Shown: one piece after another, positions 6,757 through 63,170 of the stretch | Layout of the letters: every line of letters begins with the position of its first letter | Numbering within the stretch: position 1 is the first letter of the stretch | Assembly (NCBI GenBank): GCA_031262165.1 | Contig: JAISIF010000071.1 | Span: 78 to 64,077, forward strand | Length of the DNA: 64,000 bases | Direction: 5' to 3' | Source of the DNA: Myxococcales bacterium | GTDB lineage: Bacteria; Myxococcota; Myxococcia; Myxococcales; UBA5297 | Notes under the pieces: model-generated | Seen by the model: only the letters and a program-made list of their open reading frames with translations | Told to the model about the DNA's origin: nothing | The model's database searches: none | Position numbers and translations under genes: made by a program

Positions 6757-7674
6757 ATGAACAAGCTCGCCTTTCCCCTCGCCTTTGCCCTGTCAGCCGC
6801 TGGCTGCGTCTATCCCGCCGAGCGCGGCAAGATGCTCGAAGCCAGGGTCGTCCAGCTGGAGACTGACAAGGCCGCGTTGGAGGCTTCGCTCCTGGCCCAG
6901 CGCGAACAGCTCGAAGCCCAGCTCCCCATCATCCAGGAGGCGCTGAGCAAGCTCGAGGCCGCCTCGCGCCGCTCCAACGCCGACACCGGCGTCCAGATGG
7001 AGGAGATGCAGATCCTCGTCGCCACGCTGCGAGGTCAGCTCGAAGAGCAGACCTATCGGATGGTGCGGCTCGAAGAGGCGCTGTCGCAGCTGCGCGCTCA
7101 GCCGCCGCTCGCCACGTCTCCAGCTGTCGCGGCAAGCCCTGAGTCGCCGGAGGCAGCCTCGACATCGATACCTGCGCCGACAACACCACCGACCTCATCA
7201 GTGCCTTCGACGGTGGCCACCGCCACGCCCGTGCCAGCCGTGGTCAAGCCCGCGGAGAAGCCGATCGACAAGGCCGATCGCCAGGCCTTTGCCGACGCCG
7301 TCGTACAGAAGCTCAAGAGCCAGCCTGCCGCGGGCCGCAAGCTCGCCGACGAATTCCTCGGCAAGTGGCCCAAGCACGCGCTCGCCGCCCGCGTCTACTA
7401 CGAGGTCGGGATGAGCCACCTGGCCGAGAAGAACCACAGGGCCGCCCTGTCCGAGTTCGGCGTCTTCATCCAGCCAGACATGCCCAAGGCCTTCACGGAC
7501 AGCCCCTGGGCCCCGGAGGCGCTCCTGCGCTCTGCCGACTGCTTCGCGGCGCTCAAGATGTCGCGCGAGGTGACGATGGCCCTCGAAGAGGTCGTCAACG
7601 GCTACCCCAAGAGCAGCGCGGCCAAGGATGCCAAGGCGCGCCTGGAGGCGCAGAAGAAGGCCAAGAAGAAGTGA
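6757..7674 (+). CDS. CpoB/YbgF-like lipoprotein (coiled coil plus C-terminal TPR-like region)
   Basis: There is a lipoprotein signal (MNKLAFPLAFALSAAGC) and an N-terminal coiled coil (LETDKAALEASLLAQREQLEAQ..). A Pro/Ala/Thr linker follows. The C-terminal TPR-like part (ALAARVYYEVGMSHLAEKNHRAALSEF..APEALLRSADCFAALK..YPKSSAAKDAKARLE) gives the architecture of Tol-Pal protein YbgF/CpoB. Confidence 0.6.
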   Translation: MNKLAFPLAFALSAAGCVYPAERGKMLEARVVQLETDKAALEASLLAQREQLEAQLPIIQEALSKLEAASRRSNADTGVQMEEMQILVATLRGQLEEQTYRMVRLEEALSQLRAQPPLATSPAVAASPESPEAASTSIPAPTTPPTSSVPSTVATATPVPAVVKPAEKPIDKADRQAFADAVVQKLKSQPAAGRKLADEFLGKWPKHALAARVYYEVGMSHLAEKNHRAALSEFGVFIQPDMPKAFTDSPWAPEALLRSADCFAALKMSREVTMALEEVVNGYPKSSAAKDAKARLEAQKKAKKK

Positions 7675-7758: not shown

Positions 7759-7919
7759 AGGACTCATCCCTCGATTAGCCCATCGTCCCGCTCGTCCGTG
7801 AAGCGTCAGCCTTCGTTGCTTCGCTCTTCACTTCCGTCTGGAAGCGCCCGCATCGCGCCTCGTCTGGCATTCCCCGGCCTTCGCGTTGTTCGCTCCTGAT
7901 TGTCGAAAGGGATGTGTCA
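7759..7919 (-). mobile_element. Family-A MITE-like repeat, copy 1 (reverse orientation, right end degenerate)
   Basis: It starts with aggactcatccctcgatta. The core cgccttcgttgcttcgctcttcacttccgtctggaag is the reverse complement of the core shared by the other copies. Confidence 0.8.
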
Positions 7920-20045: not shown

Positions 20046-20144
20046 CATCGTCGTCGCGAGGAGCGAGGCGACGAAGCCATCCAGGGAAAGCATCGACGGC
20101 AGAGGCAACCGTCCTGGATGGCGCCGCTTCGCTCGCAGCAATAG
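20046..20144. repeat. Family-B foldback element (two inverted motif copies)
   Basis: The motif catcgtcgtcgcgaggagcgaggcgacgaagccatcc (20046-20082) faces ggatggcgccgcttcgctcgcagcaatag (20116-20144) in inverted orientation. Confidence 0.55.
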
Positions 20145-20427: not shown

Positions 20428-22374
20428 ATGGGTGTATCTTTTGGACGTTACGAGCTTCTGAAACGGATCGCCGCGGGTGGCATGGGTGAGGTCTATCTCG
20501 CCCGACAGGCAGGGCTCGAGGGTTTCGAGAAGCTCCTGGTCGTCAAGGTCCTCCTCCCTCATTTGGCAGAGGACGCCGAGTTCACCACGATGTTCCTGGA
20601 CGAGGCGCGCATCGCGGCGCGCCTAGACCACCCGAACATCGGCCAGATCTATGATCTCGGTGAGGTCGAGGGCACCTACTTCATCGCCATGGAATACATC
20701 CGCGGCGACGACATCGTCCGCCTCTGGAAGCAGTCGCGCATCAAAAACAAGCCAGTGCCGCTGGCCTTGGCCGCGCGCATCGCCGCGGACGCCGCCGCTG
20801 GCCTCGACAACGCGCACAAGGCGCTCGACGCCAATGGCAACCCGCTCTGCCTGATCCACCGCGACGTGTCGCCGCAGAACATCCTCATCAGCTACGACGG
20901 TGGCGTGAAGCTCATCGACTTTGGCGTGGCCAAGGCCTCCAGCCGCGTCTCACACACGAGCACGGGGACCATCAAAGGCAAATACGCCTACATGAGCCCT
21001 GAGCAGATCGTCGGCAAGGACATCGACCACCGCTCAGACCTCTTCGCGCTGGGTGTCGTGCTCTACGAGATGCTGACCTCGGTGCGCCTGTTCAAGCGCG
21101 AGACAGAGGTGGCCACGCTCCAGGCGGTGACTCTCGGCGAGATCCCCGCGCCTTCGTCGATCAATCCCAACATCGACCCAATCCTCGAAGGCATCCTTCT
21201 CAAGGCGCTCGCGCGCGACCGCGACGATCGCTATGAAGACGCGCAGGCCTTTCGGATGGCGCTGGAAGAGTGGATGATCTCCGAGCGTCAGCTCGGAACC
21301 TCCGCGCACCTGGCGGCCTTCATGAAGGAGCTCTACGCGGAGCGCCTCGCCGAGGAACGCGCTTCAGGGGCCTCCTTCCCAGTGATCGAGCGCACGCCAT
21401 CACAGACGACGGGTCGCTCTTCGGTGAGCGTTGCCAATGGTTCGCCACATTCGGGCGCCAGGACGATGCTCGGCAGCGGCGGGCTGAGCCAGACGCCGAG
21501 CGCGCTCCGCTCGATGAGCAGAAGCCTCATGGCCAATACCTCTGGCACCTCGCTGTCGGTGACAGAGGCCGTCTTGGCCGGAGAGCCTCCCGCTGGCGAG
21601 GCGCAACCTCTGCCACCCAAGAAGAACACGGGCCTCCTCGTCGGCGTGATCGTCCTGCTCGTGGGGCTCCTGGGCGCCGGAGGGTTCTTCGTCCTATCGT
21701 CCGAGCGCGGTGCGCCAGCCAGCCTCCCACCAGGGCCGCCACCACCACCTGTGATCGTCCAGCCCCAGCGCGTGCATCTGGTCATCGAGAGCGCGCCGCC
21801 TGGCGCGATGGTCTATTCGAAGGGTGCCTTCCTCGGAAAGACGCCCCTGGAGATCGACCGCCTCAAGGCAGAGGGCGCCGAGCTCGACCTGTCGCTGGAG
21901 CTGCCTGGACACAAGACGGCGAGCTCCTCCATCGCGTTGGCCAGGGACGGCAGCGTGCGCGTGGTGCTCGCGGAGCTGCCTCCGCCCGAGCCTGCTGCGC
22001 CACCACCACCTGTGATTGTCCAGCCCCAGCGCGTGCATCTGGTCATCGAGAGCGCGCCGCCCGGCGCGATGGTCTATTCGAAGGGCGCCTTCCTCGGAAA
22101 GACGCCCCTGGAGATCGACCGCCCCAAGGCAGAGGTCGCCGAGCTCGACCTGTCGCTGGAGCTGCCTGGACACAAGACGGCGAGCTCCTCCATCGCGTTG
22201 GCCAAAGACGGCAGCGTGCACGTGGTGCTCGCGAAGGTTCGAGAAACGCCGCCGCCTCGCCCCCCCAGGTCCGGCAGATCGTCCAGGCCCAAGGCTGCCG
22301 ATACCGCCGCGCCTGCCGATACCGCCGCGCCGCCTTCCCAGAACGGCCCGCTCGACATCGCCCTCGACCGATGA
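20428..22374 (+). CDS. Membrane Ser/Thr protein kinase with two extracytoplasmic PEGA domains
   Basis: Hanks kinase motifs are present: GGMGEVYLA, VVKV, HRDVSPQNIL, DFGVAK, YMSPEQ. A TM helix (GLLVGVIVLLVGLLGAGGFFVL) is followed by two near-identical PEGA-type units (VHLVIESAPPGAMVYSKGAFLGKTPLEID..LELPGHKTASSSIAL). Confidence 0.9.
   Translation: MGVSFGRYELLKRIAAGGMGEVYLARQAGLEGFEKLLVVKVLLPHLAEDAEFTTMFLDEARIAARLDHPNIGQIYDLGEVEGTYFIAMEYIRGDDIVRLWKQSRIKNKPVPLALAARIAADAAAGLDNAHKALDANGNPLCLIHRDVSPQNILISYDGGVKLIDFGVAKASSRVSHTSTGTIKGKYAYMSPEQIVGKDIDHRSDLFALGVVLYEMLTSVRLFKRETEVATLQAVTLGEIPAPSSINPNIDPILEGILLKALARDRDDRYEDAQAFRMALEEWMISERQLGTSAHLAAFMKELYAERLAEERASGASFPVIERTPSQTTGRSSVSVANGSPHSGARTMLGSGGLSQTPSALRSMSRSLMANTSGTSLSVTEAVLAGEPPAGEAQPLPPKKNTGLLVGVIVLLVGLLGAGGFFVLSSERGAPASLPPGPPPPPVIVQPQRVHLVIESAPPGAMVYSKGAFLGKTPLEIDRLKAEGAELDLSLELPGHKTASSSIALARDGSVRVVLAELPPPEPAAPPPPVIVQPQRVHLVIESAPPGAMVYSKGAFLGKTPLEIDRPKAEVAELDLSLELPGHKTASSSIALAKDGSVHVVLAKVRETPPPRPPRSGRSSRPKAADTAAPADTAAPPSQNGPLDIALDR
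21739..22236 (+). repeat. Near-perfect 261-bp tandem duplication (PEGA unit plus linker) inside the kinase gene
   Basis: Unit 1 starts at 21739 and unit 2 at 22000. By hand alignment there are 9 substitutions over about 237 aligned nt. Confidence 0.9.
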
Positions 22375-26267: not shown

Positions 26268-27869
26268 TCACCCCAGGTTCGGCCTGAGCAATGGAAACAG
26301 AATGACGTCTCGGATCGATGCCGAATCGGTGAGCAGCATGGCGAGCCGATCGATGCCGATGCCTTCGCCCGCTGTCGGCGGCATCCCGTGTTCGAGCGCG
26401 CGGACAAAGTCCTCGTCGAATGGCATGGCCTCGTCGTCGCCCGTGCGCTTGAGCTCCATCTGGTGTTCGAATCGCTTGCGCTGGTCGATGGGGTCGTTGA
26501 GCTCGGAGAAGGCATTGGCGAGCTCCATCCCAGCTGCGTAGAGCTCGAAGCGGTCGGTGACGCGTGGGTCGGTGTCGCTGCGGCGCGCGAGCGGCGAGAC
26601 CTCGATCGGGAAGTCGGTCACGAAGGTCGGCTTGCTTGGGTCGAGCGCCGGTTCCCCCAATGCCTCGAAGACTGTCGCGATCATCTCCCCAGCCGTCTTC
26701 TGACCTATCGCCTTGAACAGCAGGCCTATCGCCTCCTTGCTCGCCTTGTCCTCCGAGGCCTTGGCTGCGTGCGCCGCGCGCTCGATGGCCTCGCGCAGTC
26801 CCTCGCCCGAGAGCGCCTGTTCGCGCGTGAGAGAGAGCTTCTCTGCCACGGCATCGACCATCGACACGCGTGGGTAGGGAGCCGTGAAGTCGATGGGCGT
26901 GCCCTGGTAGGTCACCTTCGAATCGCCCGTCACCTCGCGCGCCACGGTCTCGAACAGCGATTCGGTCAGCGCCATCAGGTCGAGGTAGGTCGCATGCGCC
27001 CAGTAGAACTCGATGGTCGTGAACTCTGGGTTGTGGCGCCGGTCGATGCCCTCGTTGCGCCAAAGTCGACCAATCTCATAGACACGTTCGATGCCTCCCA
27101 CGACGAGCCGCTTGAGGTGCAGCTCGGTGGCGATGCGCAGCTTCAGGTCGAGGCCGAGCGCGTTGTGATGCGTCTGGAACGGTCGCGCCGTGGCACCACC
27201 GGCCTCCTCGGGCTTGTGCAGCGTGGGCGTCTCGACCTCCACGAAGTCGCGCGCATCGAGGAAGCGCTGGATGGCCCGCACCATCTTGGAGCGCTTGAGG
27301 AACGTCTCCTTCACGCCCGGCGTCACGATGAGATCGAGGTAGCGCTGGCGGCAGCGTGTCTCGATGTCGGTGAGGCCATGGAATTTTTCGGGCAGGGGGC
27401 GCAGCGCCTTGGTCAGTAGCTCGAAGTGCTCGGCCACGAGCGAGAGCTCTCCGGTCTTGGTGCGCGTGCAGCGGCCTTGGACACCGACGATGTCGCCCAT
27501 GTCGAGCAGCTTGTAGCGCTCGAAGGCTGCCTCCCCGAGGATGTCGCGCTTGATCCAGATCTGGAGACTGCCGCTGCGATCCTTGAGCCTGAGGAAGGCG
27601 GCCTTGCCAAACGAGCGGTTGGCCATGACGCGGCCCGCGATGGCGTAGGTGCCGCTTTTCTCCTCGACTTCTGCCGAGGTCGAAAGCGCACTGAGTTTCG
27701 CCTCGATGTCCGCCACGGTCGCGTCGGTCACGAAGCCATTGGCGTAAGGGTTGGACCCGAGCGCGCGCAGCTGTTCGGCCTTCTTGAGGCGCGCCTGAAA
27801 GATCTCCTGCTCTTTGAGCGACTCTTCAGAGGATGGGGGCGTCTGGGGTGATGTGGATTCGGTGCTCAT
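26268..27869 (-). CDS. lysS: Lysyl-tRNA synthetase, class II
   Basis: The track ORF 26268..27875 begins at a TTG; the first ATG (MSTEST..) is at 27869. There is an OB-fold N-terminal domain, and class II motifs include [20 protein letters not shown] and [13 protein letters not shown]. Confidence 0.95.
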
Positions 27870-28083
27870 CGGCAAAGGTTCCGTTCGGTCTGATGAATGT
27901 CTGCAGATTCGATTTCTCGAATGAAAAAGCCCTCTGGGAGCGAGGGGCGCGCGCCATACAGCGGGCTTCGAGGAAGCGTCAAGGAAGGGGGGGGGGCGAG
28001 GGAACAGCGGGGCAAGCGGGGTCTGGTGATTTCGCGCTGGAGGGCTGCGTTTGGAGGAGGGACACGCCGCAAGCCGGTAAATC

Positions 28084-28243
28084 AGGACGCATCCATCGAT
28101 TAGGACCGAGCAACCCGAAGGACGGGGAAAGCCAGAAGAGGCACGAGGCGGGAGCTTCCAGAGGGAAGTGAAGAGCGAAGCAACGAAGGCTGGCTTTTCA
28201 CGGACGAGCGAGGTGACGGGATAATTAAGGGATAGGTCCTAAG
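28084..28243 (+). mobile_element. Family-A MITE-like repeat, copy 2 (full length)
   Basis: Sequence: aggacgcatccatcgattaggaccgagcaac...ggaagtgaagagcgaagcaacgaaggctgg...gggataattaagggataggtcctaag. Confidence 0.85.
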
Positions 28244-28254
28244 TCCCAAGGGAT

Positions 28255-28470
28255 TACCCGTGAATAGCAATGGCCTTATCGAAAGCAATCATCGCTGCCG
28301 CCAATTCATATAAAGAAATATATAATGCGTCTGTCTTTTCATAGTGAGGAATCAATTTCTAAAAACGATTGAACCATTCCCTTGAAGTTTGAAATCAAAG
28401 ATTCTGCTTGGGCCCAGAATTCATCAGAGACTTCCCAAGTTTTGATGCGAGCCATGTTCACCTCTATACG
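28255..28470 (-). mobile_element. AT-rich remnant resembling an internally deleted IS5-family (DUF4096/IS427-like) transposase gene
   Basis: A 38-codon minus-strand ORF at 28339-28455 has the RBS AGAGGTG and reads MARIKTWEVSDEFWAQAESLI.., matching the conserved N-terminus (W-x-V-S-D-E-L-W-x3-E-x-L-L) of such transposases. A downstream frame reads ..TDALYISLYELAAAMIAFDKAIAIHG*, which resembles their C-terminal tail. Recognition is from memory only. Confidence 0.3.
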
Positions 28471-28580
28471 GGGAATGTCAGTCGAGGCGAGAGCTTCCAG
28501 ACGGAAGTGAAGAGCGAAGCAACGAAGACTGGCTTTTCACAGACAACTGGGGCGACGGGATAATGAAGGGATAAGTCCTT
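28471..28580 (+). mobile_element. Family-A MITE-like repeat, copy 3 (5'-truncated by about 45 bp)
   Basis: Sequence: gggaatgtcagtcgaggcgagagcttccagacggaagtgaagagcgaagcaacgaagactgg...gggataatgaagggataagtcctt. Confidence 0.8.
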
Positions 28581-28739: not shown

Positions 28740-29486
28740 ATGTCACAAGCGCTCTCGTGGATTGCCGTCGTCTTGGCCGCCACTGCCCTCATCGTCGCCT
28801 TCATGGCAGGCCCCTCTGGTCCGCCAGCCTCGTCGCGTGGCGAGGTGAGTGCCAGGGACATCCACTCGATCCGGGATCGATTGGACGCGCTGGAGTCGTC
28901 GTTCGCGCAGCTCGAGGCACGCGCCGACGATCGTGGCGCCATGCCAGGTGCGGCGCGATCTGCCCTCGCCCCCGCCCCCTCCTCGATGAGCGGCGCTGAC
29001 ACACGCACGCTCTCCACTCAGATTTCGGCCCTGCGCCGCGACGTGGACCGCCTGCTCTCGACGAACCCCTCGACGTCTTCCGAGGGGCGCGAGCAATTCA
29101 AGTCCGCCGTCGCCTCCGCACAGCACGAGATACTGGCCACACGCTTTCGCCAGCATCAGGAACGCATGAACGCCGATCGGTTGGAGCGCCTGGATCGCTT
29201 CGCCGTGGAGCAGGGCCTGTCCTCGGGGCAGGCCGATGATCTCCGGCGCGTGCTCGAGGAGAACATGCGGACGATGCAGGAAAACATGCAGGCCATGTGG
29301 AGCGGTGAAGGCCGCATGGAGCCGCACGAGCGACGCCAGCTGTTGGAGGCACAGCGCGAGTCACTTCAAAATGCCGTGAACCAGATCTTGAGCCCGGAAC
29401 AGGCCCAGAAGTTCGAACAGGAGATCGTGCCGCCAGCCCGCTCCCTGCGCGGGCCGCCACCGCCGCCGATGGCGATGGAGCCCTGA
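28740..29486 (+). CDS. Membrane-anchored coiled-coil protein of unknown function (weak LTxxQ/Spy-CpxP-like motif)
   Basis: There is an N-terminal TM helix (WIAVVLAATALIVAFMAG), long helical Arg/Glu/Gln-rich segments, and the motif ILSPEQAQKFEQ near the C-terminus. Codon usage is GC3-rich. Confidence 0.5.
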   Translation: MSQALSWIAVVLAATALIVAFMAGPSGPPASSRGEVSARDIHSIRDRLDALESSFAQLEARADDRGAMPGAARSALAPAPSSMSGADTRTLSTQISALRRDVDRLLSTNPSTSSEGREQFKSAVASAQHEILATRFRQHQERMNADRLERLDRFAVEQGLSSGQADDLRRVLEENMRTMQENMQAMWSGEGRMEPHERRQLLEAQRESLQNAVNQILSPEQAQKFEQEIVPPARSLRGPPPPPMAMEP

Positions 29487-36496: not shown

Positions 36497-39400
36497 TCAA
36501 TTCGATGTTTCCCGATCGATATCGGCCTCCTTCAGCTCCCCCATCTCATCCGATGCCTTTGGCCTGTCGGGCGGCTCGGTCACAGCCATTGGTCTGGGCG
36601 CCACGTAGCCCACAGCGATGAAGAGCAGGCCAACGAGGATGAATGAGACCACGCCAGCCACGGTGCTGAGGTGGTGGCGGTCCACCAGGAGGAGCTTCAC
36701 CACCACTGCGGCGGCGAGGATCGCGCCCAATGTCCACTGACCTCGGTCCTTTCGGCGTGACCCCAAAACCCACTTCAGCGCCCCCCAGACGCTCCAGACG
36801 ATGGTCAGGCTCATCTGCGCCACGCTGCTTTTCCAGAGCCCTTCGAGATCCCACGCCACGTCGTCGGCCCAGTGATGGACGCAGCGCAGCGCGACCGCCG
36901 TCACGAACGCGATGTCGAGCAGGGCCACGAAGACGTTGTGGCGGTGGTCCACTCGCACGGACGCAGCGCCCTCGTCCTTCCGAAGCCAGAACAGGAAGAG
37001 CGCCAGCGCCGTGAACTGCAACAGCTCCATCGGGTTGACGAGCGGCAGCCAGGGGAGCGGCGCCATCGAGCCAGACGCGAACAGCGCGACGATCCAGCCC
37101 AGCCCCATGGCCGACCAGCAGGTCAGCATCAGGGGCGTGCGCAGGCGATCGAAGTGCTCGCCCATGGGCTTCGCCAGCCAACGCCACTGCCAGATGCCGA
37201 GCACCGTGAGCGCCAGCGTTGGTAGCGCGACGAGCCCGAGGCGCCAGCTCTCGGCCAAATGGTCGCCGAACCAATAGGCCAAGAGCGACAGGATCAGCGC
37301 CCACGAGGGCCACCAGGCGAACCGCGCAAGCTGCGCAGCGCCGTCTCCCCTCGGCCGCAGGCACAGGAGCGTGCGCGCGCCGAGGACGGCAAAGGCGCCC
37401 CACGCGAGCGCGTTCCAACCGAGTGAGAGGCGCACGCGAGCCACGATGAGGAAGATCGCGATCAGCGCGGGGACCACGAGGGCGAGGCTGGCGGTCACGC
37501 TCAGCGCCTTGGCCGGTCGGCGCTGTTCTACTTCGGCGGCCATCCACGCCGTCAGCGCGACGAACGCGATCAGCGCGCTGGCAAAGCCCGCGTCGCTCTC
37601 CACGAACATGGCGATCTCATGGATGCCGATGCTCAGCCACCAGCCGATCCCCACGAGATACAGCGCCGTGGCCATGGCCTTGGATTGCCGCGCCCGATGC
37701 TGCCAAGCGCTCGCGAACGTGACGGCGCTCAAGAGCAGGCCGCCCGCGAGTTCGAGGTGCAGCCCGTCCTGCTCCACCAGCGCTTCGATCCAGTGTCTCG
37801 CAACGCCGAAGAGGAGGAGACCCGGCAGGAGCAGGAGCGTCAGGCTCAGCGCCTTGGCAGGCCGTCGGCGATCGACCGCGAACACCATCCACGACGTCAG
37901 CGCGCCAAAGCAGAGCATCGCGCCAGTCATCCAGGGGCGCGGCAGGTAGGTGTCGAGCTCGCTGATGCCCGTGCCCAGCCACCAAGCGAGCCCCAAGAGA
38001 TAGAACGCCGTGGCCCACTTGTTCGACTGACGCGACTGATGTCGCCAGGCGCTCGCGAGCGCGACTCCGCTCAGGAGCAGTGCCGCTCCGAACTCGAGGT
38101 TCAGGATGGGCCAATCCGGCGTCAGGTCATACCAACCAAAGGGGAAGGCGATGACGGCGGCGATCGGGGTGAGGAAAACCGTCAGGTTCAGCGCCTTGGC
38201 TGGCCAGCGCCAATCGACCGCTACCGCGATCCACGATGTCAGCGCGGCGAACGCGAGCAGCGCTCCAACGGGTTGATTCACGAACGCGACGATCTCGTTG
38301 ACAGCCGCGAGCAGCCACCAGCCGAGCCCCAGGAGATAGAACGCCGTGGCCCTGCCGTTCGACCGGCACGCCCGATAGAGCCAAGCGATCGCGAACGCGC
38401 AGGCGCACAGGATGAACGCGCTCGAGAAGCGGCCATTGGCGATGGCCCTCCCCGCAGCACCTGCCACGCCCCAGTCCGCCAAGAAGTAGGCCGTGAGCGA
38501 GGCGAGCTGGAGCAGGGTGCCCGAGACCTGCGGCAGGCGCTTCTTTTGGCGCAGCCCCAGCCACACGAGCGCGACGCCTTCGAGCGCGAACAGGCATGTC
38601 GTCACGCGCACGTCGAAGCCCAGCGGGATCGCCAACGTCCCAAAGGCCACCGCGAGGTGCGCGTAGGATTTGCCGAGCAGCTCGAAGCCCTCGCGGCGAC
38701 GCAGGACCCACGCCAGCGCCGCGTAGAGCAGGCCAATGCCCAGCGCGCAGAAGCTCAAGGTGAGCGCGCGGCCATCGACGATGCAGGCCTCCAGCGCGAA
38801 GGCCCACACTGGCAGGCCGAACACCAGAATGCCGTCGATGGCGCGGTGCTTCTGGGCCGATACCCGCCAGGCGTAGAGCAGCGGGATGGCCAGGTAGAAC
38901 AGGAAGAAGATCGCGAGGAAGGGCTGGACCGAGGCAAACTTGGACCACTCGTAATCGCGGATGCCCCACGCCATCCCGATGGTGAACGTGAAGAAGAACC
39001 CGAGCAGATTGAGGCTGCGCCAAGCCCGCTTCCACGCGATGGCCAGAATGCCGACGTTGAGGAGCACGTAGTAGGCGAACAAAACCACGTGCTGACCGCC
39101 GCCGCTCGAGAGCCAGATGGGCGCGAGGAACCCGGCGAGGAGCGCGAAGATCGCCAGCGCCAGGGCGTCCTGCGCCACGGACAGCATGGCGGCGACGGCC
39201 ACGAGCGCCACACTCAGGCAGAAGGCCGCCTCCACGGGAAGCAAGTCATAGAGCTTGACGGCCGCGAAGGTGATGAACAGCAGCAGGCCGATCATTCCGC
39301 CCTGGACGCTGAGCGCGAAGGAGCGGTGGCTCTCGCGCTTGCGCCAGCCGAACACGAGCCCGCCGAATGCCGCAGCGGCGAGCACGCTCAGGCGCAGCCA

Positions 39401-47958: not shown

Positions 47959-48513
47959 ATGGACGATGTAGAAGTCTTAAAACCACTCGAATTGGAAATT
48001 CAAATACCACGTGGTATTCATTCCGAAGCATCTCAAGAAGGCATTGTATGTCGAACTTCGAAAAAGGTTGGGCGAAAATTTCTGGGAAATAGAAGAAGGG
48101 CATTCAATACTCGATCTCCTGTATATATTGATTAAGGACTTATCCCTTCATTATCCCATCGCCCCACTCGTCCATGAAACGCCAGTCTTCGTTGCTTCGC
48201 GCTTCACTTCCGTCTGGAAGTTCCCGCCTCGCGCCTCGACTGACATTCCTCGTCCTTCGCGGCGCAAAGGTCCTAATGAAGGGATAAGCCCTAAAACTCA
48301 GCCAAAGAACTCTGGTTCTAAAGTTGTCGGATATATCAAAGAAAAGAATGCGGTGTATGTGGCACTGAAACTCGGAGAACGAAAACGCAATTATAAAGGA
48401 GAAAATTTCTGGGCACGCGGACATTGCGTTTCAACCGTAGACTGAAACGAAGAGTCGATTAAAGAATATACACGGAGACAGTAAACGGAAGATATTAGAG
48501 TGGCGCAATCAAA
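47959..48513 (+). pseudogene. tnpA: IS200/IS605-type tnpA (Y1/HUH transposase) pseudogene, disrupted by a family-A repeat
   Basis: Frames give MDDVEVLKPLE / (frameshift) HSNWKFKYHVVFIPKHLKKALYVELRKRLGENFWEI..EEGHSILDLLYILIK / [160-bp insertion] / PKNSGSKVVGYIKEKNAVYVALKLGERKRNYKGENFWARGHCVSTVD*NEESIKEYTRRQ*TEDIRVAQSK. This follows the IS200 TnpA order. The HUH position reads LLY, and the frame contains two in-frame stops and a frameshift. Confidence 0.75.
48134..48293 (-). mobile_element. Family-A MITE-like repeat, copy 4, inserted inside the IS200-type tnpA
   Basis: Sequence: aaggacttatcccttcattatccc...cttcgttgcttcgcgcttcacttccgtctggaag...ggtcctaatgaagggataagccct. It splits ..ILIK from TQPKNSGSKVVGY.. 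of tnpA. Confidence 0.85.
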
Positions 48514-48516
48514 GAT

Positions 48517-48570
48517 TTATTCCTCTATTATTCCGTTGCCCCGCTCGTCCTTGAAACGCCAACCTTCGTT
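48517..48570 (-). mobile_element. Family-A repeat fragment, copy 9 (one end only)
   Basis: The fragment tttattcctctattattccgttgccccgctcgtccttgaaacgccaaccttcgtt aligns with the first ~55 nt of copy 4. Confidence 0.6.
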
Positions 48571-48868
48571 AAGCCTGCTGTAGGCTACCTATAATGTGGC
48601 AGATAACCTGAGTGGACCACGTTAGCGTTCCACCCATTAGTTGCTTTGAGCGGCACACACACAAATCCCCCGTTTTTGCCGGGGGATTCTATTAATCGAC
48701 GCGAACACGATGGGCTTTATGCAACGCCCCTGCGGCAAACGTATCGATCGTCGATCTTCGGGAGAATTCACTCGCCCTCGTCGATTCACTCAGACATTTT
48801 GACAATCATTTTGTTTTTCACTAAAAGGCCGCGCTTTTTTAGGGCCGGGTGTTCCTATTCTCCTGAAG

Positions 48869-53288: not shown

Positions 53289-53425
53289 CATCGTCACTGC
53301 GAGGAACGCGGCGACGAATCAATTCATTGACGTTCGATCTCGATATTCTCTCGGAATCGCTTCGCTTTGAGTGCAACGGCGGATCGATGTCGTGAGGCAC
53401 GCAGCGACGAATCAATTTATTGGCG
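53289..53425. repeat. Family-B short repeats (three motif copies: +, -, +)
   Basis: Copies: catcgtcactgcgaggaacgcggcgacgaatcaattcattgacg (53289-53332); ggaatcgcttcgctttgagtgcaacgg (53353-53379, inverted); gtcgtgaggcacgcagcgacgaatcaatttattggcg (53389-53425). Confidence 0.55.
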
Positions 53426-54344: not shown

Positions 54345-54728
54345 GGGGAACTCCTGAGGTGAGGGGGATGGATGTGGATGAGGTTGGGCGAGGGGATGCG
54401 GCGAACGACCGGGCGCCTTTAGCACGGCGCTTTCGAGCGGCGAAATTCATTCGGCCCATCTTGACCGCCACGCCTTGCCTTCGCCCTGGATTGCTTCGCT
54501 TCGCTCGCAGTGACGGATCGCGCCGAGGCGAGCTGTCGGCTCAACGGTGCGAAGGGATCGACGAGCGACCAAACTCGACTCGATCGGCTCTGAAAAGAGA
54601 CCCGGTCCAAGGGAATCGCCTCGGTGGGGCAGACCTCAAAATCGCCGCCACTTCGTCACAGGCCTTTGCTATGGAGCGCCCCCTTTTCACCCGCCGGATC
54701 CATCCCTCGAATCGAAAGGATCTCTCTC

Positions 54729-55351: not shown

Positions 55352-55519
55352 AAGGACCTATCCATCGACATCGATTAGGACCTTTGCACCGCGAAGGCCG
55401 GGGAAAGCCAGACTTCGGCGCGAGGCGAGAGCTTCCAGAAGGAAGTGACCATCGAAGCAACGAGGGCTGGCGTTTCACGGAGAAGCGGGGCGACGGGACA
55501 ATCTATGAATAGAACCTAA
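55352..55519 (+). mobile_element. Family-A MITE-like repeat, copy 5 (right end degenerate)
   Basis: Sequence: aaggacctatccatcgacatcgattaggacctttgcaccgcgaagg...ggaagtgaccatcgaagcaacgagggctggcgtttcacgg... Confidence 0.8.
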
Positions 55520-55788: not shown

Positions 55789-56592
55789 ATGGGGCTCTTG
55801 GATTGGTTGGCCCGGATGCTCAGGTTGCCCGCGAGGAGGCAGCTCGTGGCCATGACACCGAATGACCCTCGGCTTCAGCAATCACCCGAGGAACTGTGCG
55901 AGGCGCTCGATCGGGAAAAGGCGCGCTCTGCAGAGCTGGCCCGCGCCTATGCCGGGCAGCTCAACGATCGGAAGGCGTTCCAGGCACGCCTCCAGAGGGA
56001 ACAGGAGCGAGCCATCGGCATGGCGCAGGGCAAGGTGGCCTGTGATCTCCTCGACATCTCGGACGAGATCGAGCGGGCGCTCGGCGTGGCCCAGGGTGAC
56101 GAGAGCGCGCTGGCCCAGGGCGTTCGGATGATTCACTCCGAGGTTCAGAAGCGGCTCCATGCCCTGGGGGTGAAACGCCTGACGCTCACCGGCACGCGCT
56201 TCGATCCGAACCTCGCCGAAGCGCTGGAGGTCCTGCCGGTCGAGAGGCCCGAGGAGGACGAGCTGGTCATCGATGAGCTGCGGCCAGGGTTCGCGCTCGG
56301 CGATCAGGTGATCCGCACCGCGCGGGTGACGGTCGGCCGCTACGTCGCGCCAGTCCAGGCTGCCTCGGATCGCAATCCATCATCGGAGCAGGCGAATCTG
56401 GATGGCGCTACCGCCGATGCCTCTGGGCAATGCTCACCTCGAGTCGCCCCCAATCTCGAAGCATCGCTTCCGGCGGAGAGATCGACCTCGACTCCCGCTC
56501 GATCCGAGCAAGCGGACCAGGCGACAGAAGTGCTGCCTGCCGAGATCGCGACCGAGGCGGCGATCGAATCAGCGCCCGTGGAACAGGTCTGA
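55789..56592 (+). CDS. grpE: GrpE-like nucleotide exchange factor with a long C-terminal extension
   Basis: Matching segment: RLQREQERAIGMAQGKVACDLLDISDEIERAL...VQKRLHALGVKRLTLTGTRFDPNLAEALEVLP...VIDELRPGFALGDQVIRTARVTV. No dnaK gene is adjacent. Confidence 0.78.
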   Translation: MGLLDWLARMLRLPARRQLVAMTPNDPRLQQSPEELCEALDREKARSAELARAYAGQLNDRKAFQARLQREQERAIGMAQGKVACDLLDISDEIERALGVAQGDESALAQGVRMIHSEVQKRLHALGVKRLTLTGTRFDPNLAEALEVLPVERPEEDELVIDELRPGFALGDQVIRTARVTVGRYVAPVQAASDRNPSSEQANLDGATADASGQCSPRVAPNLEASLPAERSTSTPARSEQADQATEVLPAEIATEAAIESAPVEQV

Positions 56593-56648: not shown

Positions 56649-56802
56649 AAGGACTTGCCCCTCAATGAGGACCGAGCAACGCGAAGGACGGAGAAAGCCA
56701 GACGAGGCGCGAGCTTCCAGACGGAAGTGAAGAGCGAAGCAACGAAGGCTGGCGTTTCACGGACGAGCTTTGGCGACGGGATAATGAAGGGATACGTCCT
56801 AA
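56649..56802 (+). mobile_element. Family-A MITE-like repeat, copy 6
   Basis: Sequence: aaggacttgcccctcaatgaggaccgagcaacgcgaagg...ggaagtgaagagcgaagcaacgaaggctggcgtttcacggacgag...gggataatgaagggatacgtcctaa. Confidence 0.85.
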
Positions 56803-56875: not shown

Positions 56876-57514
56876 TCACTCCAGATCGAGATCTTCCAGG
56901 CGAGCTTCGAGCTCCCGGATGCGCTTCTCCAGGGCGCTCATCTCCTTGGCGAGTGTCGGGAGCGCCGAGAGCCGACCGACCGTCTGCTGGACGCTGCTGT
57001 CGAGCTGGCGGTGCCAGTCATCGACCGACTTTTGGATCTGCGTGAGCAGCTCCTTGGACTGATCGACCTTGGTCTGGAGCTGTGAGGCCTTCTTCTTGTT
57101 GGCCTCGGCGCTGTTCGACGACGCGATCGCTGGCGTCCCAGCGTGCGAGGTGCGGCTCTTCTTGGCGTAGAGCCCTCCAGCGTAGGAGGTCACCTGCTTG
57201 ACGCTCGACTGCAGGGAGTCGCTGATCTGGGCGCCACGGCTGCGGATGAGGTCGAGCAACATGCCGATGGGCATGAGCGACACCTTCTTCTCCTGCTCGA
57301 AGATGATCTGCGTCAGCGTGACAGAGGTGAGATCTTCCTGCGTTTTGTTGTCGATGATGCGGACTTCCTCTCCCATTCGGATGGCGTCAGCGATCTCATC
57401 CAGCGTCACGTAGGCGCTCTCCTCGGTGTCGTAGAGCTTCCGGTTCGCGTAGCGCTTGATGATGCGCGGGGCACGGGGCCCTTTGGCGGGCCTGCTGGAA
57501 GATGGCATGCGCAT
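56876..57514 (-). CDS. phaR: PhaR-like polyhydroxyalkanoate synthesis regulator
   Basis: The N-terminal domain (IIKRYANRKLYDTEESAYVTLDEIADAIRMGEEVRIIDNKTQEDLTSVTLTQIIFEQEKK) matches the PhaR/PHB-accumulation regulator DNA-binding domain. The C-terminus is a coiled coil. Confidence 0.78.
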   Translation of the reverse strand: MRMPSSSRPAKGPRAPRIIKRYANRKLYDTEESAYVTLDEIADAIRMGEEVRIIDNKTQEDLTSVTLTQIIFEQEKKVSLMPIGMLLDLIRSRGAQISDSLQSSVKQVTSYAGGLYAKKSRTSHAGTPAIASSNSAEANKKKASQLQTKVDQSKELLTQIQKSVDDWHRQLDSSVQQTVGRLSALPTLAKEMSALEKRIRELEARLEDLDLE

Positions 57515-57599
57515 GGGGTGTCCTCGATGGGGGGGGGGCGGCTCGGAAAAAGGCGGCGGACTCTAGTCGAAGCAGAGGCCATTCAAAGGGGTTCTTTCC

Positions 57600-57768
57600 A
57601 AGGACTTATCCCTTCATTATCCCGGCGCCCCACTTGTCCGTGAAACGCCAGCCTTCGTTGCTTCGCTCTTCACTTCCTTCTGGGAGCTCCCGCCTCGCGC
57701 CTCGTCTGACTTTCCCCGGCCTGCGTCCTGCGCGGTGCAAAGGTCCTAATGAAGGGATGAGTCCTAAG
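57600..57768 (-). mobile_element. Family-A MITE-like repeat, copy 7 (best-preserved, 169 bp)
   Basis: The ends are aaggacttatcccttcattatccc...ggtcctaatgaagggatgagtcctaag, giving terminal inverted repeats of about 20-25 nt. The core is cttcgttgcttcgctcttcacttcc. Confidence 0.88.
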
Positions 57769-58079: not shown

Positions 58080-59426
58080 ATGAAAAAAAAGATGAACTTG
58101 TCCCAGACGCTCCAACAGACCTTTCGCTCGCTCGCGCACCGCAATTACCGCCTGTTCATCAGCGGCCAGCTCGCCTCGATGATCGGGACGTGGCTCCAGT
58201 CCGTGGCGCAGTCATGGCTGGTCTATCGGCTGACGGGCTCGTCCCTGCTACTCGGCGCGCTCACGTTCGCGCTCCAGTTCCCGCTGATCCTGATCGCGCC
58301 GTTTGGTGGCGTGTTCGCCGATCGCTTCCCGCGTCGACCCCTGCTCATGGCCACGGCCGGCGCGCTCTCGACCCTGACCCTCGTGCTCGGCGTGCTGACG
58401 ATCTCCGCGAACATCTCGATCGAACTCCTGTTCCTCTTTGCCCTGTTCATGGGCGTGACGAACGGCGTGGACAACCCAACGCGCCAGGCCTTCGTCGTGG
58501 AGATGGTCGGCAAGCGGGACCTGCCCAACGCCATCGCCCTCAACTCCTCGATCGTAAACATGGCGCGCATCGTGGGGCCAGCGCTGGCAGGCCTGCTCGT
58601 GGCCACGGTGGGCGAGGGCTGGTGCTTCATCATCAATGGGCTGAGCTTCACCGTCGTCCTCATCATGCTCACCCGCATTCGCCTCGACGAATCGGCGCGC
58701 GCGGTCGCTCACCGAACGGGCGGCGGCCTCCGGTTGGCACTCCGCGAGATGGGACGAGGCCTGGCCTTCGTGACGCGCTCGCTGCCCATGCGCTCGCTCC
58801 TCCTCCTCGTCGGGCTCATCAGCCTGGTCGGCATGCCCTACGTCGTGCTCATGCCGATCTTTGCCGATCAGATCCTCGGCAGTGGCTCTGGCACGCTGGG
58901 ACTGCTGCTCGGCGCCAATGGCGTGGGCGCGCTGTCGAGCGCCCTGTGGCTGGCCGCACGTGGGAGCGCTCGGGGATTGGAGCGCTGGGTCGCGCGGGCC
59001 GCGCTGGGCTTTGGCGTCCTGCTCATCGGCTTCTCGCTGTCGGAGTGGCTGTGGCTCTCGCTCTTCCTGCTGCCGGGCCTCGGCGCGTGCGCCGTGATGC
59101 AGATGGCCTCGACCAACACGCTGCTGCAGACGCTCACCACGGACGAGATGCGCGGGCGCGTCATGGCCGCCTACTCGATGATGTTCTTCGGGATGTCGCC
59201 GCTGGGCGCGCTGATGGCTGGGGCCGTCGCCGATCGCATCGGCACACCGCGCACGGTGATGCTCGGTGGGCTCCTGTCGCTCGGCGGCGCTCTGGCCTTT
59301 CGCTACTTCCTGCCCCGGATCGAGCGGGCCATCGCGCTCCAACGCGAGGCGACCAGCCACAGCCAGACCGGGCTGGACACGGCGTCGAGTGCCGAGGTGC
59401 AGAGCCCTTCGGACGAGCCGCCGTGA
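58080..59426 (+). CDS. MFS transporter (MFS_3 / EntS-like)
   Basis: The N-terminus (FRSLAHRNYRLFISGQLASMIGTWLQSVAQSWLVYRLTGS) is followed by about 12 TM helices. Confidence 0.85.
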   Translation: MKKKMNLSQTLQQTFRSLAHRNYRLFISGQLASMIGTWLQSVAQSWLVYRLTGSSLLLGALTFALQFPLILIAPFGGVFADRFPRRPLLMATAGALSTLTLVLGVLTISANISIELLFLFALFMGVTNGVDNPTRQAFVVEMVGKRDLPNAIALNSSIVNMARIVGPALAGLLVATVGEGWCFIINGLSFTVVLIMLTRIRLDESARAVAHRTGGGLRLALREMGRGLAFVTRSLPMRSLLLLVGLISLVGMPYVVLMPIFADQILGSGSGTLGLLLGANGVGALSSALWLAARGSARGLERWVARAALGFGVLLIGFSLSEWLWLSLFLLPGLGACAVMQMASTNTLLQTLTTDEMRGRVMAAYSMMFFGMSPLGALMAGAVADRIGTPRTVMLGGLLSLGGALAFRYFLPRIERAIALQREATSHSQTGLDTASSAEVQSPSDEPP

Positions 59427-59441
59427 GTCGGACGACCGCCA

Positions 59442-61028
59442 TCAAAGATCGACGACCCCATCGGAATCGAAGTCGGGCGCGTGAGCGTCCACGCATCGCG
59501 AGACTAAACGGCGAGCAGCCAAGAGGGCGTTCTCTCCGTGCTCAGGGCCCTCCCCCAGACACTCCCCTTCCGCCAGCAGCACCCGGGCATCACCGCATTG
59601 CTGCTGACTGGCCGCGATGATGCTGAGCCAGGCCAAGGCTCTGACCGGCGTCTCGCCGAAGTCGCGGGCGCCGAGGAGATAGATTTTGGCTCCAGCGAGA
59701 TCGCCCGCCGCGAGACGCTCCTGGCCAAGGTCGATGAGGCTATCGGCGTCGAGGCCGAAGAGCACGGCGCGCGGTGAGCTGACGTCGCCTGTCGCGACAG
59801 AGGCAAGGCCGAACTCGATCCCAGCGAGGCACAGAATCCCGGCCAGCCCACCAGCGATGCGCAACCCCCAGCAACGCTTTCGAGAAGGAGGCGCGGGGCG
59901 GGGATAGGAGGGCTCGAGGCCGAGCGCGGTCATTCGATCGCAAAGGTCGGCATGGCTCGTCCTCCCACCGAAGACCGCTGGCGTCAGGGTGCTGATGTGG
60001 AGCTTCTCCAACGCGCGAGCGAGGTGGAGCGCGTTCCCGGCTTCGGCCGTCACGGCATCCGCCTGGCTCTCGTGGCGGTTGAAAGCCAGCGGCGCCAGCA
60101 GCATCGAGAACACGATGACGGCACCGATGAGCAGAAAACCCCACGTTCCAAACCAGCTCTCGAAAAAGCTGGACCAGACGAGGGGCAAGGGAAGGAACAC
60201 GAGCGCCGCGCGACCGATCCTGACGCCACGACTCTCTTCGAGGTGGCCGAGCTCGTGGCACAACACGGCGACGAGCTCATCGTCATCGAGAACTTCGAGC
60301 GCCGCCGTGGTGACCGCGACCCTTCTGGTGAGCGGAAACACGAACGCGTTGGCGTGGTGCCAGCGCAGCTCATGGACGTCCTTCACCCATTCTCCGAGCA
60401 TTTCAGAGGCGCGTTCTGTGGCTCGTTGAAGGCGTGCGTCTCCGCGGCGCGCCAGTCTCAAAAATCGGGCGATGTCCAGGGCAAACCCTGTGTGGGTTGC
60501 CGCCACCGCGATCAGCCCCATGAGCATCAGCCCGGCCGCGACGCTTCCGAGATGAGGCGGACAGAACAGCGCAAGCCCGACGGCGATCAACAGGTGCGGA
60601 CAGAAGAAGAGCAGCAACACGATCCAGCCCTGCAGATAGCTGCTGCCTGAGAGGCGCGGGTAGCCAAGCGCGCGTTCGGCGCGCACGCGGAAGGCGAAGA
60701 ACACGCTGAGGATGCCGATGTTGACCGCCATGCTGGTGACGCCACGGGGGCCTGTCAGCTCACCAGAGTGGAGATCGATCAAGACGACGACAGCCATCAT
60801 CCAGATGTAGAGGCCCGCTATCCACTGCCCAGTGCGGACCTCTTGCGCGATGCGCGCGCGTTCGAACCACGGCAGCTCGCCCGCTCCACGCAGTGGATGA
60901 AGGCCGAGGACGGTGGTCACCCCGACGCCCACCAGCGCCGTGAACACTGAGACGAGGAAGGCAACGGCGATCGGGCCCCACCGCAGCCAGATGGGCAAAA
61001 GCTCAAGGGCTTCGTCGAACGCGGTCAT
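59442..61028 (-). CDS. Polytopic membrane M48-family zinc metallopeptidase-like protein
   Basis: Several N-terminal TM helices are followed by an HExxH motif (LVAVLCHELGHLEE) and a downstream Glu (NRHESQAD). The start overlaps the stop of the upstream radical SAM gene (ATGA). Confidence 0.72.
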   Translation of the reverse strand: MTAFDEALELLPIWLRWGPIAVAFLVSVFTALVGVGVTTVLGLHPLRGAGELPWFERARIAQEVRTGQWIAGLYIWMMAVVVLIDLHSGELTGPRGVTSMAVNIGILSVFFAFRVRAERALGYPRLSGSSYLQGWIVLLLFFCPHLLIAVGLALFCPPHLGSVAAGLMLMGLIAVAATHTGFALDIARFLRLARRGDARLQRATERASEMLGEWVKDVHELRWHHANAFVFPLTRRVAVTTAALEVLDDDELVAVLCHELGHLEESRGVRIGRAALVFLPLPLVWSSFFESWFGTWGFLLIGAVIVFSMLLAPLAFNRHESQADAVTAEAGNALHLARALEKLHISTLTPAVFGGRTSHADLCDRMTALGLEPSYPRPAPPSRKRCWGLRIAGGLAGILCLAGIEFGLASVATGDVSSPRAVLFGLDADSLIDLGQERLAAGDLAGAKIYLLGARDFGETPVRALAWLSIIAASQQQCGDARVLLAEGECLGEGPEHGENALLAARRLVSRCVDAHAPDFDSDGVVDL

Positions 61029-62323
61029 GAATTCCTGGGCGCCCGCTCATCCAGCCCGCGCGCGAAGTTGCCGATGCGCAGCCACGGCGCCTCTTCCAGC
61101 AAGAGATCGATCATCGCGCGCACGCCGATGGGGTCACCGCCAGCGCCACGGCCTCGGGCGAGCGCGAGATACTGCTCCGGGTCGATACACAGCGAGCGCG
61201 TCTGGATCTGATCGACGTGGAACTCGACGACGAGATCACGCAGCCGCTCCACCTCTCCCAGTCGATCGTTCACGCCCGGCATGGAGAGGAGGTTGAGCGC
61301 GATGTAGGCCCCCGCCTCGCGTGCCAGGCCAATGGAGCGGCGCACGTCGGCGAGCGCGTAGCCCTGAGGCGCGTAGTAGGCGCCGTAGAGGGCGGGATCG
61401 GCCGAGTTGAGGCTGAAGCGAACCGCGTCGAGCCCCTGGTCCAGAAGAAGGCTGAGGCCCTTGGTGAGGCTGCCGTTCGTGTTGATGTTGATCGAGCCGC
61501 GCGGCGTCACCTGGCGCATCCGCCTCATGGCCTCGGCGAGCTCGCTCGCTCGCGTCAATGGCTCACCCTCGCAGCCCTGACCAAAGCTGACCATCGCGTG
61601 GCCCGTGGCGTGGGTGAGGTGATGCGCGCCGAGCTCGGCCAGATCCTCGATCGTTGGCAGATCGTCGAGGCGGCTCATCGACGACGGTGGCCCCCCTGGG
61701 CGACGCTCACTGATGCAGCCCAGGCAGCGCGCATTGCAGGTGTTGGAGGAGGGCAGCCCGCCCTCGTCACGACCGTAAAAGATGTTCTGCGCCGTAAAGC
61801 AGCGCTCGACGAGCGCGCAGTGCGTCAGATGGCGGACCACGCCGTTGTTCGGCAGGCGCGCGCACAGCGCATCGACGCGGCCTTGCAGCTCTGGCGTCGA
61901 GAAATGGCTCGAGTTCCAGTGATCGCGCTCGTCTGTCCGAACGGCAAAAACGACGGGACCGCTCTCTCCCCAGCCCGCCGCGGTGTAGGCCCACTGCGGC
62001 AGGTTGTCGGGCGCGACCTTGGCCGCGGCAGGAAGGAAGGTGCGCGTGTAGCCAGGCGGCAGAAGCGCGGCCACGACGTTCGGCGCGAAGCGGCGGCCAT
62101 CGATCTCAAAGCTGTCGAGCCGCGCGAGGTGGCCCGTCTTTGGGTTGAAGCCGATCGGCCTGTGACCGGGCAGATGCGCCAGGCGGCCGCCACAGTCGGG
62201 CAGAGGGATGGGCGGCTCGTCGGCCAAGAGCAGGTCGTCACCAGAGCGCACTGGCGCGAGCAACGTGGGGTGCTCGAGAACGAGTCCCTCGGGCGTGGCT
62301 AGGAGGAGTTTGGGCTGCGTCAT
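61025..62323 (-). CDS. Radical SAM domain protein with a ~190-aa N-terminal extension of unknown function
   Basis: The CxxxCxxC cluster reads SNTCNARCLGCIS. It is followed by FGQGCEGEPL, NINTNGSL and AVRFSLNS, as in radical SAM cores. Confidence 0.8.
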   Translation of the reverse strand: MTQPKLLLATPEGLVLEHPTLLAPVRSGDDLLLADEPPIPLPDCGGRLAHLPGHRPIGFNPKTGHLARLDSFEIDGRRFAPNVVAALLPPGYTRTFLPAAAKVAPDNLPQWAYTAAGWGESGPVVFAVRTDERDHWNSSHFSTPELQGRVDALCARLPNNGVVRHLTHCALVERCFTAQNIFYGRDEGGLPSSNTCNARCLGCISERRPGGPPSSMSRLDDLPTIEDLAELGAHHLTHATGHAMVSFGQGCEGEPLTRASELAEAMRRMRQVTPRGSININTNGSLTKGLSLLLDQGLDAVRFSLNSADPALYGAYYAPQGYALADVRRSIGLAREAGAYIALNLLSMPGVNDRLGEVERLRDLVVEFHVDQIQTRSLCIDPEQYLALARGRGAGGDPIGVRAMIDLLLEEAPWLRIGNFARGLDERAPRNS

Positions 62324-62410
62324 GCGGGGGTCTCTCTAGAGGAGCGATGCGTTTTCTTAGGAGCGACACATGCGTCGCCGCCCCACACGCCATGACTCGA
62401 CGTCAAAGCC

Positions 62411-62566
62411 AAGGACTTATCCTTCAATTAGGAGCGAGCAACGCGAAGGGGGGAATGCCAGATGAGGCGCGAGGTGGGAGCTCCCAGACGGAAGTGAAGC
62501 GCGAAGCAACGAGGGCTGGCGTTTCAGGGACGAGCGGGGCGACGGGATAATCGATGGATAAGTCCC
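62411..62566 (+). mobile_element. Family-A MITE-like repeat, copy 8
   Basis: Sequence: aaggacttatccttcaattaggagcgagcaacgcgaagg...ggaagtgaagcgcgaagcaacgagggctggcgtttcaggg...gggataatcgatggataagtccc. The TIR ggacttatccttcaatta matches the reverse complement of taatcgatggataagtcc at 16 of 18 positions. Confidence 0.88.
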
Positions 62567-63049
62567 AAAGCTAAAAATGCGTCAACTCGCGCGTCTTAGA
62601 AATCGCATTTATGCAAAGACAACCCCTCTCTCTAATATAAAGGAGAATATTTTGAGCTACTCTAGAGATTTGACGGATGCATAATAGCGAATGGGAATCG
62701 AGCGAAATAAATCAAGCGAGTTTTAATGAATTCGGCGCACTATTTATAGAAGAGCCAAGAAATCTGGATTATGGAAGCGGTTCATAAGTGTATTGGTCAA
62801 AATTGATCGCGAAAGGTGCGGATGATTCGAGTTCTCTGGACATACAGCGGTTTCAGGAAAGTTTGACACCAACTTGAGCCTTCTGTCTCTCTTTGAGGAA
62901 TGCGTCATTCTTTTTTGAAACCGCTGTAATTCACACGGACTATTGATAATCGCCCATACGCGATGACGACATGACTCTATGATGAATCATGACAGCCCAT
63001 CACCATCGATGACACGCCCTGCCCAGCTATCATTTCTCCCAAAATCGCC

Positions 63050-63097: not shown

Positions 63098-63170
63098 AGG
63101 CCGGTAGCTCAGTGGCTAGAGCACTACCTTGACACGGTAGGGGTCGGTGGTTCAATCCCACTCCGGCCTA
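63098..63170 (+). tRNA. tRNA-Val (anticodon GAC)
   Basis: Hand-folded cloverleaf: acceptor AGGCCGG/CCGGCCT; D arm GCTC-AGTGGCTA-GAGC; anticodon arm CTACC-TTGACAC-GGTAG; variable loop GGGTC; T arm GGTGG-TTCAATC-CCACT; discriminator A. No CCA is encoded. Confidence 0.92.

Follow-up and report, generated by a model that had tools for sequence, protein, structure and literature searches.

Nine places in the 64-kb stretch of DNA analysed here (the window), which comes from an uncultured myxobacterium, carry copies of one short repeat family. The copies have inverted ends, are flanked by short direct repeats and lie in mixed orientation. They encode no protein and lack RNA-type covariation, and one of the insertions can be undone in silico so that the interrupted gene is restored. 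We interpret the family as a type I MITE, most likely cut down from an element of the IS5 family, and assign this reading a probability of roughly 0.8. The copies would be mobilised in trans, and we infer a high copy number in the genome as a whole. This supports the MITE-like reading put forward in the initial annotation on the basis of size, inverted ends, copy number and absence of coding sequence, and adds to it the 3-bp flanking repeats, the restored tnpA gene and an IS5-like transposase remnant.

The existence of the repeat family is confirmed. Seven full and two partial copies had been claimed from reading the sequence, with a nucleotide HMM built from the copies proposed as a check. 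Such a profile (nhmmer, seven full copies), run on the window, returned the same nine places and nothing else above noise (Table 1). The full copies have E-values of 1e-43 to 1e-48, and the next-best match after the nine places has E=0.59. The 19-nt end sequence occurs nine times in the window at ≤3 mismatches, with 0 occurrences expected. The statement that all copies share the core is slightly overstated. A 45-nt core is found six times at ≤3 mismatches (0 in 100 shuffles), but copies 55352 and 28468 carry more core mismatches and the fragment at 48512 retains the second half only. Any two full copies are 73-89% identical (mean 82%) and, judged by this divergence, the copies are old. Together they make up ~2% of the window, at a density of ~1 copy per 7 kb.

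Table 1. Copies of the repeat family in the window and the features associated with them.
Feature	Position	Strand	nhmmer E	Element, ends and flanks	Context
Full copy	7759-7919	-	4.2e-45	most diverged full copy; 5' terminal repeat degenerate (TGACACATCC)	between genes 6757-7674(+) and 8028-10754(+)
Full copy	28084-28243	+	2.1e-47	element 28085-28239; flanks TCA / TAA	divergent intergenic region, 26268-27875(-) to 28740-29486(+)
38-codon ORF, putative transposase remnant	28339-28455	-			reads inward from the end at 28578
Partial copy	28468-28580	+	6.3e-31	profile positions 40-158; terminal repeat ends at 28578; flank TTA	
IS200/IS605-type Y1 transposase pseudogene	47984-48445	+			insertion target, not part of the MITE
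Full copy	48134-48293	-	1.5e-48	element 48136-48291; perfect 3-bp target-site duplication TAA, 48133-48135 and 48292-48294	inside the IS200-type tnpA pseudogene
Diverged fragment	48512-48570	-	1e-10	profile positions 100-158; one terminal repeat and ~40 nt of interior	
Full copy	55352-55519	+	6.6e-43	element 55354-55516; flanks CAA / TAA	between SSB-like gene and grpE (55789-56592)
Full copy	56649-56802	+	3.8e-43	element 56651-56799; flanks GAA / TAA; 8-nt internal deletion	between convergent grpE(+) and 56876-57514(-)
Full copy	57600-57768	-	1.3e-47	element proper 57602-57764 (GGAC...GTCC); flanks on + strand CAA 57599-57601, TAA 57765-57767	between divergent genes 56876-57514(-) and 58080-59426(+)
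Full copy	62411-62566	+	7.4e-47	element 62413-62565; perfect 3-bp duplication CAA, 62410-62412 and 62566-62568	between 61025-62323(-) and tRNA-Val 63098-63170(+)

The element proper measures 149-163 bp in the full copies and is bounded, as had been claimed, by inverted ends. These are 19-nt terminal inverted repeats (GGACTTATCCCTTCATTA; the two ends read AGGACTTATCCCTTCATTA and TAATGAAGGGATAAGTCCT), which pair with each other in the consensus fold. Read in the forward orientation, GGACTTATCCCTTCATTA is followed by ~20 variable nt, ACGGGGAAAGCCAGACGAGGCGCGAGGCGGGA, the conserved core GCTTCCAGACGGAAGTGAAGAGCGAAGCAACGAAGGCTGGCGTTTCACGGA, CGAGCGGGGCGACGGGA and the terminal TAATGAAGGGATAAGTCC. The variable nucleotides come as two sub-types, GGACCGAGCAACGCGAAGG or GGACCTTTGCACCGCGAAGG. 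A CTTCC-AGAC-GGAAG hairpin and a 17-residue pseudo-peptide, both noted earlier, are present in the copies. No reading frame is conserved open across them, as the claimed lack of coding capacity predicts, and stops occur in all forward frames. A profile search with the longest frame (the open reverse frame) found no protein homologue among 5.8 billion proteins. Elements of this length without a transposase gene fall within the size range used for MITEs (about 50-1000 bp).

The copies are located in AT-rich intergenic DNA according to a GC3-based gene map, with 48134-48293 as the single exception, so the observation that all but one are intergenic holds. Three are placed between genes in tandem (55352 in sense, 7759 and 48134 in antisense), 56649 lies between convergent genes, and 28084, 57600 and 62411 lie between divergent genes. 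Both orientations relative to the neighbouring genes occur on this map. The copies are probably selfish or neutral DNA of AT-rich intergenic regions.

The flanks of the element carry the signature of insertion, and target-site duplications, which the initial annotation had suggested looking for, were found at the full copies. With the bounds of the element set as GGAC...GTCC, we compared the three bases on each side of the seven full copies. These 3-bp flanks are direct repeats of TNA type, identical at 15 of 21 positions, against 10.7 when the flanks are paired at random among the copies (p=0.017). TAA/TAA and CAA/CAA are perfect pairs and four other copies show 2/3 identity; in total, five of the seven pairs are imperfect. 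A model in which the flanks are an extension of the inverted repeats accounts for 7 of 21 positions versus 15 of 21 for the duplication model.

One copy, at 48136-48291, interrupts an IS200-type tnpA. With the copy in place, the Pfam model Y1_Tnp matches this sequence in two stretches with 41.1 bits. After removal of 48136-48294, which is the element plus one TAA (159 bp), it matches in one stretch with 49.6 bits, and the reconstructed tnpA scores 62.5 bits against the NCBIfam transpos_IS200 equivalog (cutoff 55). Alignment of the reconstructed protein with the Sulfolobus IS200 transposase (2EC2) is gapless across the junction (DLLYILI/KTQPKNS versus DHIHLFV/NCPPRYA, the slash marking the junction). 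The frame and the alignment are restored only when the element and 3 bp are removed. The gapless reconstruction fixes the boundaries of the element, and the site is an empty site as reconstructed by homology. The reading frame of the tnpA pseudogene is by chance open straight through the MITE copy.

When orthologous loci were sought as candidate empty sites, a search of the genome collection for loci related to that of the M48 protease gave no relatives, and the only short-read contigs encoding window proteins were Logan contigs of the same sample.

This IS200/IS605-family tnpA-like sequence (47984-48445) is found where copies 48134 and 48512 lie, which raises the possibility that a Y1 (IS200-like, RAYT) transposase has spread the family as repeats of the REP/REPIN type. 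Transposition by Y1 enzymes of the IS200/IS605 type yields neither terminal inverted repeats nor 3-bp duplications, whereas the element has 19-nt terminal inverted repeats together with 3-bp flanking duplications. Moreover, the copy interrupts the tnpA-like gene instead of flanking it, and the other seven copies have no Y1 gene nearby. The only Y1 gene in the window is a pseudogene, in which the HUH motif has been lost (DLLY replaces DHxH) and a stop follows ...STVD, short of the catalytic tyrosine region. We consider spread by a Y1 transposase extremely improbable.

Repeats of this size can also be structured RNAs, that is, a family of non-coding or cis-regulatory RNA whose sequence is kept for its fold and which is not mobile DNA. 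The forward strand does form a long imperfect hairpin (consensus -40 kcal/mol), the forward RNA of one copy reaches z=-2.3 relative to shuffles, and conservation is unusually high in an internal core of 50 nt. However, such a fold comes from any element with inverted repeats. The reverse strand gives a consensus of -28 kcal/mol and z=-1.2 as RNA, and z=+1.1 is obtained for DNA. Compensatory changes, proposed in the initial annotation as a test of RNA structure, were not above shuffled controls: the observed pairing and covariation were reached by 83/500 and 115/500 column shuffles (a weak test, with seven sequences), and two-sided changes occur only inside the terminal repeats. We did not see the conserved fold in a fixed genomic context that had been named as the finding that would argue for an RNA family. 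The copies are in mixed orientation, occupying sense, antisense, 5' and 3' positions, and match no Rfam family. One of them interrupts a transposase gene with a duplicated TAA. In an Rfam search of the window only the tRNA-Val reached its gathering threshold, and the copies were unmatched even at E up to 1. Overall, an RNA family is very unlikely. A sub-threshold Rfam match to Chlorobi-1 was obtained at 57497-57558(+) (21.5 bits, the gathering score being 50; E=0.008 when 2.7 kb were searched). A G-run adjoining copy 57600 on its outer side falls within this match, which is probably due to chance. Small non-coding repeats of Deinococcus, considered because of the high G+C content, were dropped because the host is a Myxococcales MAG.

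The partial copy 28468-28580 suggests what the parent of the MITE may have been. It can be aligned with the MITE as far as 28468, an ATG follows at 28455 after another 12 nt, and the 12-nt spacer (ATAGAGGTGAAC on the - strand) holds a GAGGTG ribosome-binding site. The first 21 residues of the 38-codon ORF that starts there are MARIKTWEVSDEFWAQAESLI. In a six-frame tblastn search of 7.3 Gb of plasmids this peptide gave ten weak matches (E=0.2-9). The best of them fall on N-termini, and for the three that carry an annotation the protein is a transposase of the IS5 family. The best match is identical at 14 of 21 positions, aligned from residue 1 to residue 1 (pairwise E=2e-8), with a Streptomyces protein of 276 residues that has DUF4096 and DDE_Tnp_1 domains. 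In the reciprocal search with the Streptomyces protein, the ORF at 28455 is the best match in the window (E=0.001). From the remnant match, the reciprocal best hit and the adjoining MITE homology we conclude that an autonomous element has probably decayed here, with 28455-28578 representing its left end. The partial copy would then be its putative retained left end (the inverted repeat and a ~113-nt leader). On this reading the MITE looks like a fusion of ~39 bp from one IS end with ~119 bp from the opposite end, with the join at ...GAAGG/ACGGGG... (slash at the join point).

Between the full copy at 28084 and the partial copy lies a 224-bp AT-rich stretch (28244-28467; ~40% G+C), of which only the last 63 bp (28393-28455), the IS5-like transposase start, are recognisable. 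For the remainder no match was obtained; it may be unrelated DNA or the decayed interior of the IS.

Flanks of 3 bp and TNA type agree with the short target duplications known in IS5-family groups of the IS1031/IS427 type. The IS1031 group has been described as having a single ORF and inserting at a 3-nt site (PMC2516522), and the IS427 group as making duplications of 2-4 bp (PMC3281130). On the strength of the 21 residues and the duplication length, we think that a parent in the IS5 family is rather probable.

The alternative is that the MITE has a parent outside the IS5 family and that the IS5-like remnant is next to the partial copy by chance. In that case an unrelated IS, since decayed, would have truncated a MITE copy and left the remnant behind. 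The match to the remnant is short (database-wide E=0.2) and was missed by both Pfam and NCBIfam, and a protein search with the 38-residue remnant returned only the remnant itself. No parent was recovered, as the window holds no full-length autonomous element with matching ends; the search for one that the initial annotation had recommended came back empty there and in the collections searched. The Streptomyces IS5 copy has no clearly recognisable inverted repeats around it, so there are no ends to compare. Mobile elements also nest locally, another copy of the family being inside the IS200 pseudogene. The geometry at 28455-28468, however, is that of a real IS end, with MITE homology ending 12 nt before a start codon, GAGGTG between the two, and the ORF reading inward. 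In addition, the flanks are of the 3-bp TNA type that fits IS1031-type groups of IS5, and all three annotated matches (3/3) are N-termini of IS5-family transposases. We therefore prefer descent from an IS5-family element and regard a parent of another family as unlikely.

The MITE most likely arose by internal deletion of an IS5-family IS with a transposase composed of a DUF4096 N-terminal domain and a DDE domain, and with a 3-bp duplication (IS1031/IS427-like). What the deletion would have spared is ~39 bp at the right end and ~119 bp at the left, the latter comprising the inverted repeat and the untranslated leader to just before the ribosome-binding site. The parent transposase would be expected to start MARIKTWEVSDEFW. 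For mobilisation in trans, a full-length relative would provide a DDE transposase that binds the 19-nt repeats, excises or copies the element, and inserts it at a TNA-type trinucleotide that is duplicated on insertion.

The composition of the element resembles that of MITEs from other bacteria. MITECca01 of Cardinium, a type I MITE derived by internal deletion from the IS982-family ISCca4 (PMC9769881), is likewise short and non-coding and consists of both IS ends with sequence past one inverted repeat. It is also multi-copy and mostly intergenic, and it too disrupts mobile elements, as the copy at 48136-48291 disrupts the IS200 pseudogene. It differs in having an IS982-family parent, whereas the parent here is probably IS5-like and was not recovered intact, and in having spread in a recent burst, whereas the copies in the window, at 73-89% identity, are old. 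BrickBuilt, MITE239 and MITEPgRS of Porphyromonas gingivalis and ATR of Neisseria meningitidis (PMC4596501) are non-autonomous elements that have been assigned to IS5-family parents. These MITEs were tied to their parents solely via their terminal repeats (GAGACC...), to which GGACTTATCCCTTCATTA is unrelated. The link to IS5 here is made by the transposase remnant and the 3-bp duplication, and the element has no internal minisatellite.

Intact ISs of the IS1031/IS427 type (ISLxx6 and IS1237 of Leifsonia, PMC2516522; Paracoccus elements of the IS427 group, PMC3281130) are ~830-900 bp long with 13-21-bp inverted repeats and 2-4-bp duplications. The likeness lies in the N-terminal remnant, which matches a transposase with DUF4096 and DDE_Tnp_1 domains; the element itself differs in having no transposase, and its ends showed no established similarity to those of any named IS. 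Similar in form are the Correia elements (CREE) of Neisseria, MITEs of ~100-160 bp with terminal inverted repeats that are dense in intergenic regions. They have no sequence relation to the family described here and duplicate TA, in contrast to its 3-bp TNA-type duplication. Correia elements carry sigma-70-like promoters (PMC10969869), and the present family has an outward-facing promoter-like motif, described below.

Conservation along the element is uneven. The internal core has a mean pairwise identity of 0.89-0.93, compared with 0.66-0.82 for the right terminal repeat and a lower value for the left one; the left third of the element is also less conserved than the core. In its simplest form the MITE model would predict the opposite, with terminal repeats conserved more strongly than the interior, so some constraint may act on the core. 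The simplest explanation for this pattern is constraint acting on master copies. In the parent, the core would correspond to the leader, from the inverted repeat to the transposase start, and may have included a promoter, a regulatory hairpin or a sub-terminal site for transposase binding.

The core also contains a promoter-like motif. A consensus scan identified it as TTCACG-N17/18-GATAAT in two of the copies, where it points outward through the terminal repeat. The relaxed, sigma-70-like form TTCA..-N17/18-.A.AAT is present in eight of the nine copies, including the old fragment. The motif aims at the start of a neighbouring gene in about half of the copies and at gene ends in the rest, no better than chance. 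An effect on neighbouring genes is a possible side effect of this outward-facing motif. We consider it unlikely that the family has been co-opted in this myxobacterium as a dispersed regulatory module, that is, as a mobile promoter or protein-binding site. Should the core turn out to function as a promoter or as a binding site, this would add one more mobile element that rewires expression, like Correia in Neisseria.

We know the family only from this 64-kb window, as no match was found in the collections searched. At 90% identity, the clusters of the window proteins hold only this 65,858-bp contig of the Myxococcales bacterium MAG. A degenerate pattern of the core had 0 matches in 185,579 species-representative genomes and 0 in viral contigs; a slightly looser form had 0 matches in JGI metagenome contigs, as did a terminal-repeat pattern in metagenome contigs. 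As positive controls in the window, the core pattern finds eight of the nine copies and the terminal-repeat pattern five. Blastn of plasmids and phages retrieved neither a copy nor a parent. Literature searches did not find a description of MITEs in myxobacteria; a bioreactor paper that mentions both MITEs and Myxococcota proved unrelated. MITEs as a kind are well known, and the family itself matched nothing in the collections or literature searched.

Short-read contigs of the same organism (Logan, SRR14710920) break inside the repeats. Contig L001 ends inside copies at 57648 and 62513, and contig L002 ends inside the copy 56649-56802 at 56697. Contig ends inside the conserved core are expected for a multi-copy repeat, as this is how an assembler treats such repeats. 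If the density of ~1 copy per 7 kb held genome-wide, the genome would contain roughly a thousand copies, a number matched by few bacterial MITEs. A dense, lineage-specific MITE accounts for the breaks in the short-read assembly at intergenic regions of this organism.

As it stands, this is an ordinary selfish element for which the boundaries, the target duplication and the probable origin have been worked out, in a host lineage without a sequenced close relative in the collections searched. The family is a marker for strain typing of the MAG, and points to an undiscovered IS5-type element as its driver.

Several other repeats and structures were observed in the window. A second small intergenic repeat family is present at 20049-20140, 53298-53332, 53391-53425 and 54482-54510. 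Its unit forms an imperfect palindrome (CGCGAGGAGCGAGGCGACGAAGCCATCCAGG...CCTGGATGGCGCCGCTTCGCTCGCAG), of which half-copies occur at other places in the window, and it has no Rfam match. The word GAGCGAAGC(A/G)ACGAAG is common to this family and the core of the MITE. This repeat is probably also multi-copy, given that Logan contig L002 starts inside one of its copies (54486). Tandem coding repeats are represented by three ~342-bp units at 37484-38427 in a gene for a DUF2339 membrane protein. Within the gene for a PEGA-domain Ser/Thr kinase, two 239-nt units that are 96% identical are located 261 bp apart (21737-22236). Just past the truncated MITE fragment at 48512-48570, a strong GC hairpin (AAATCCCCCG-TTTTTGC-CGGGGGATT, 48640-48690), flanked by T-rich sequence, looks like a terminator.
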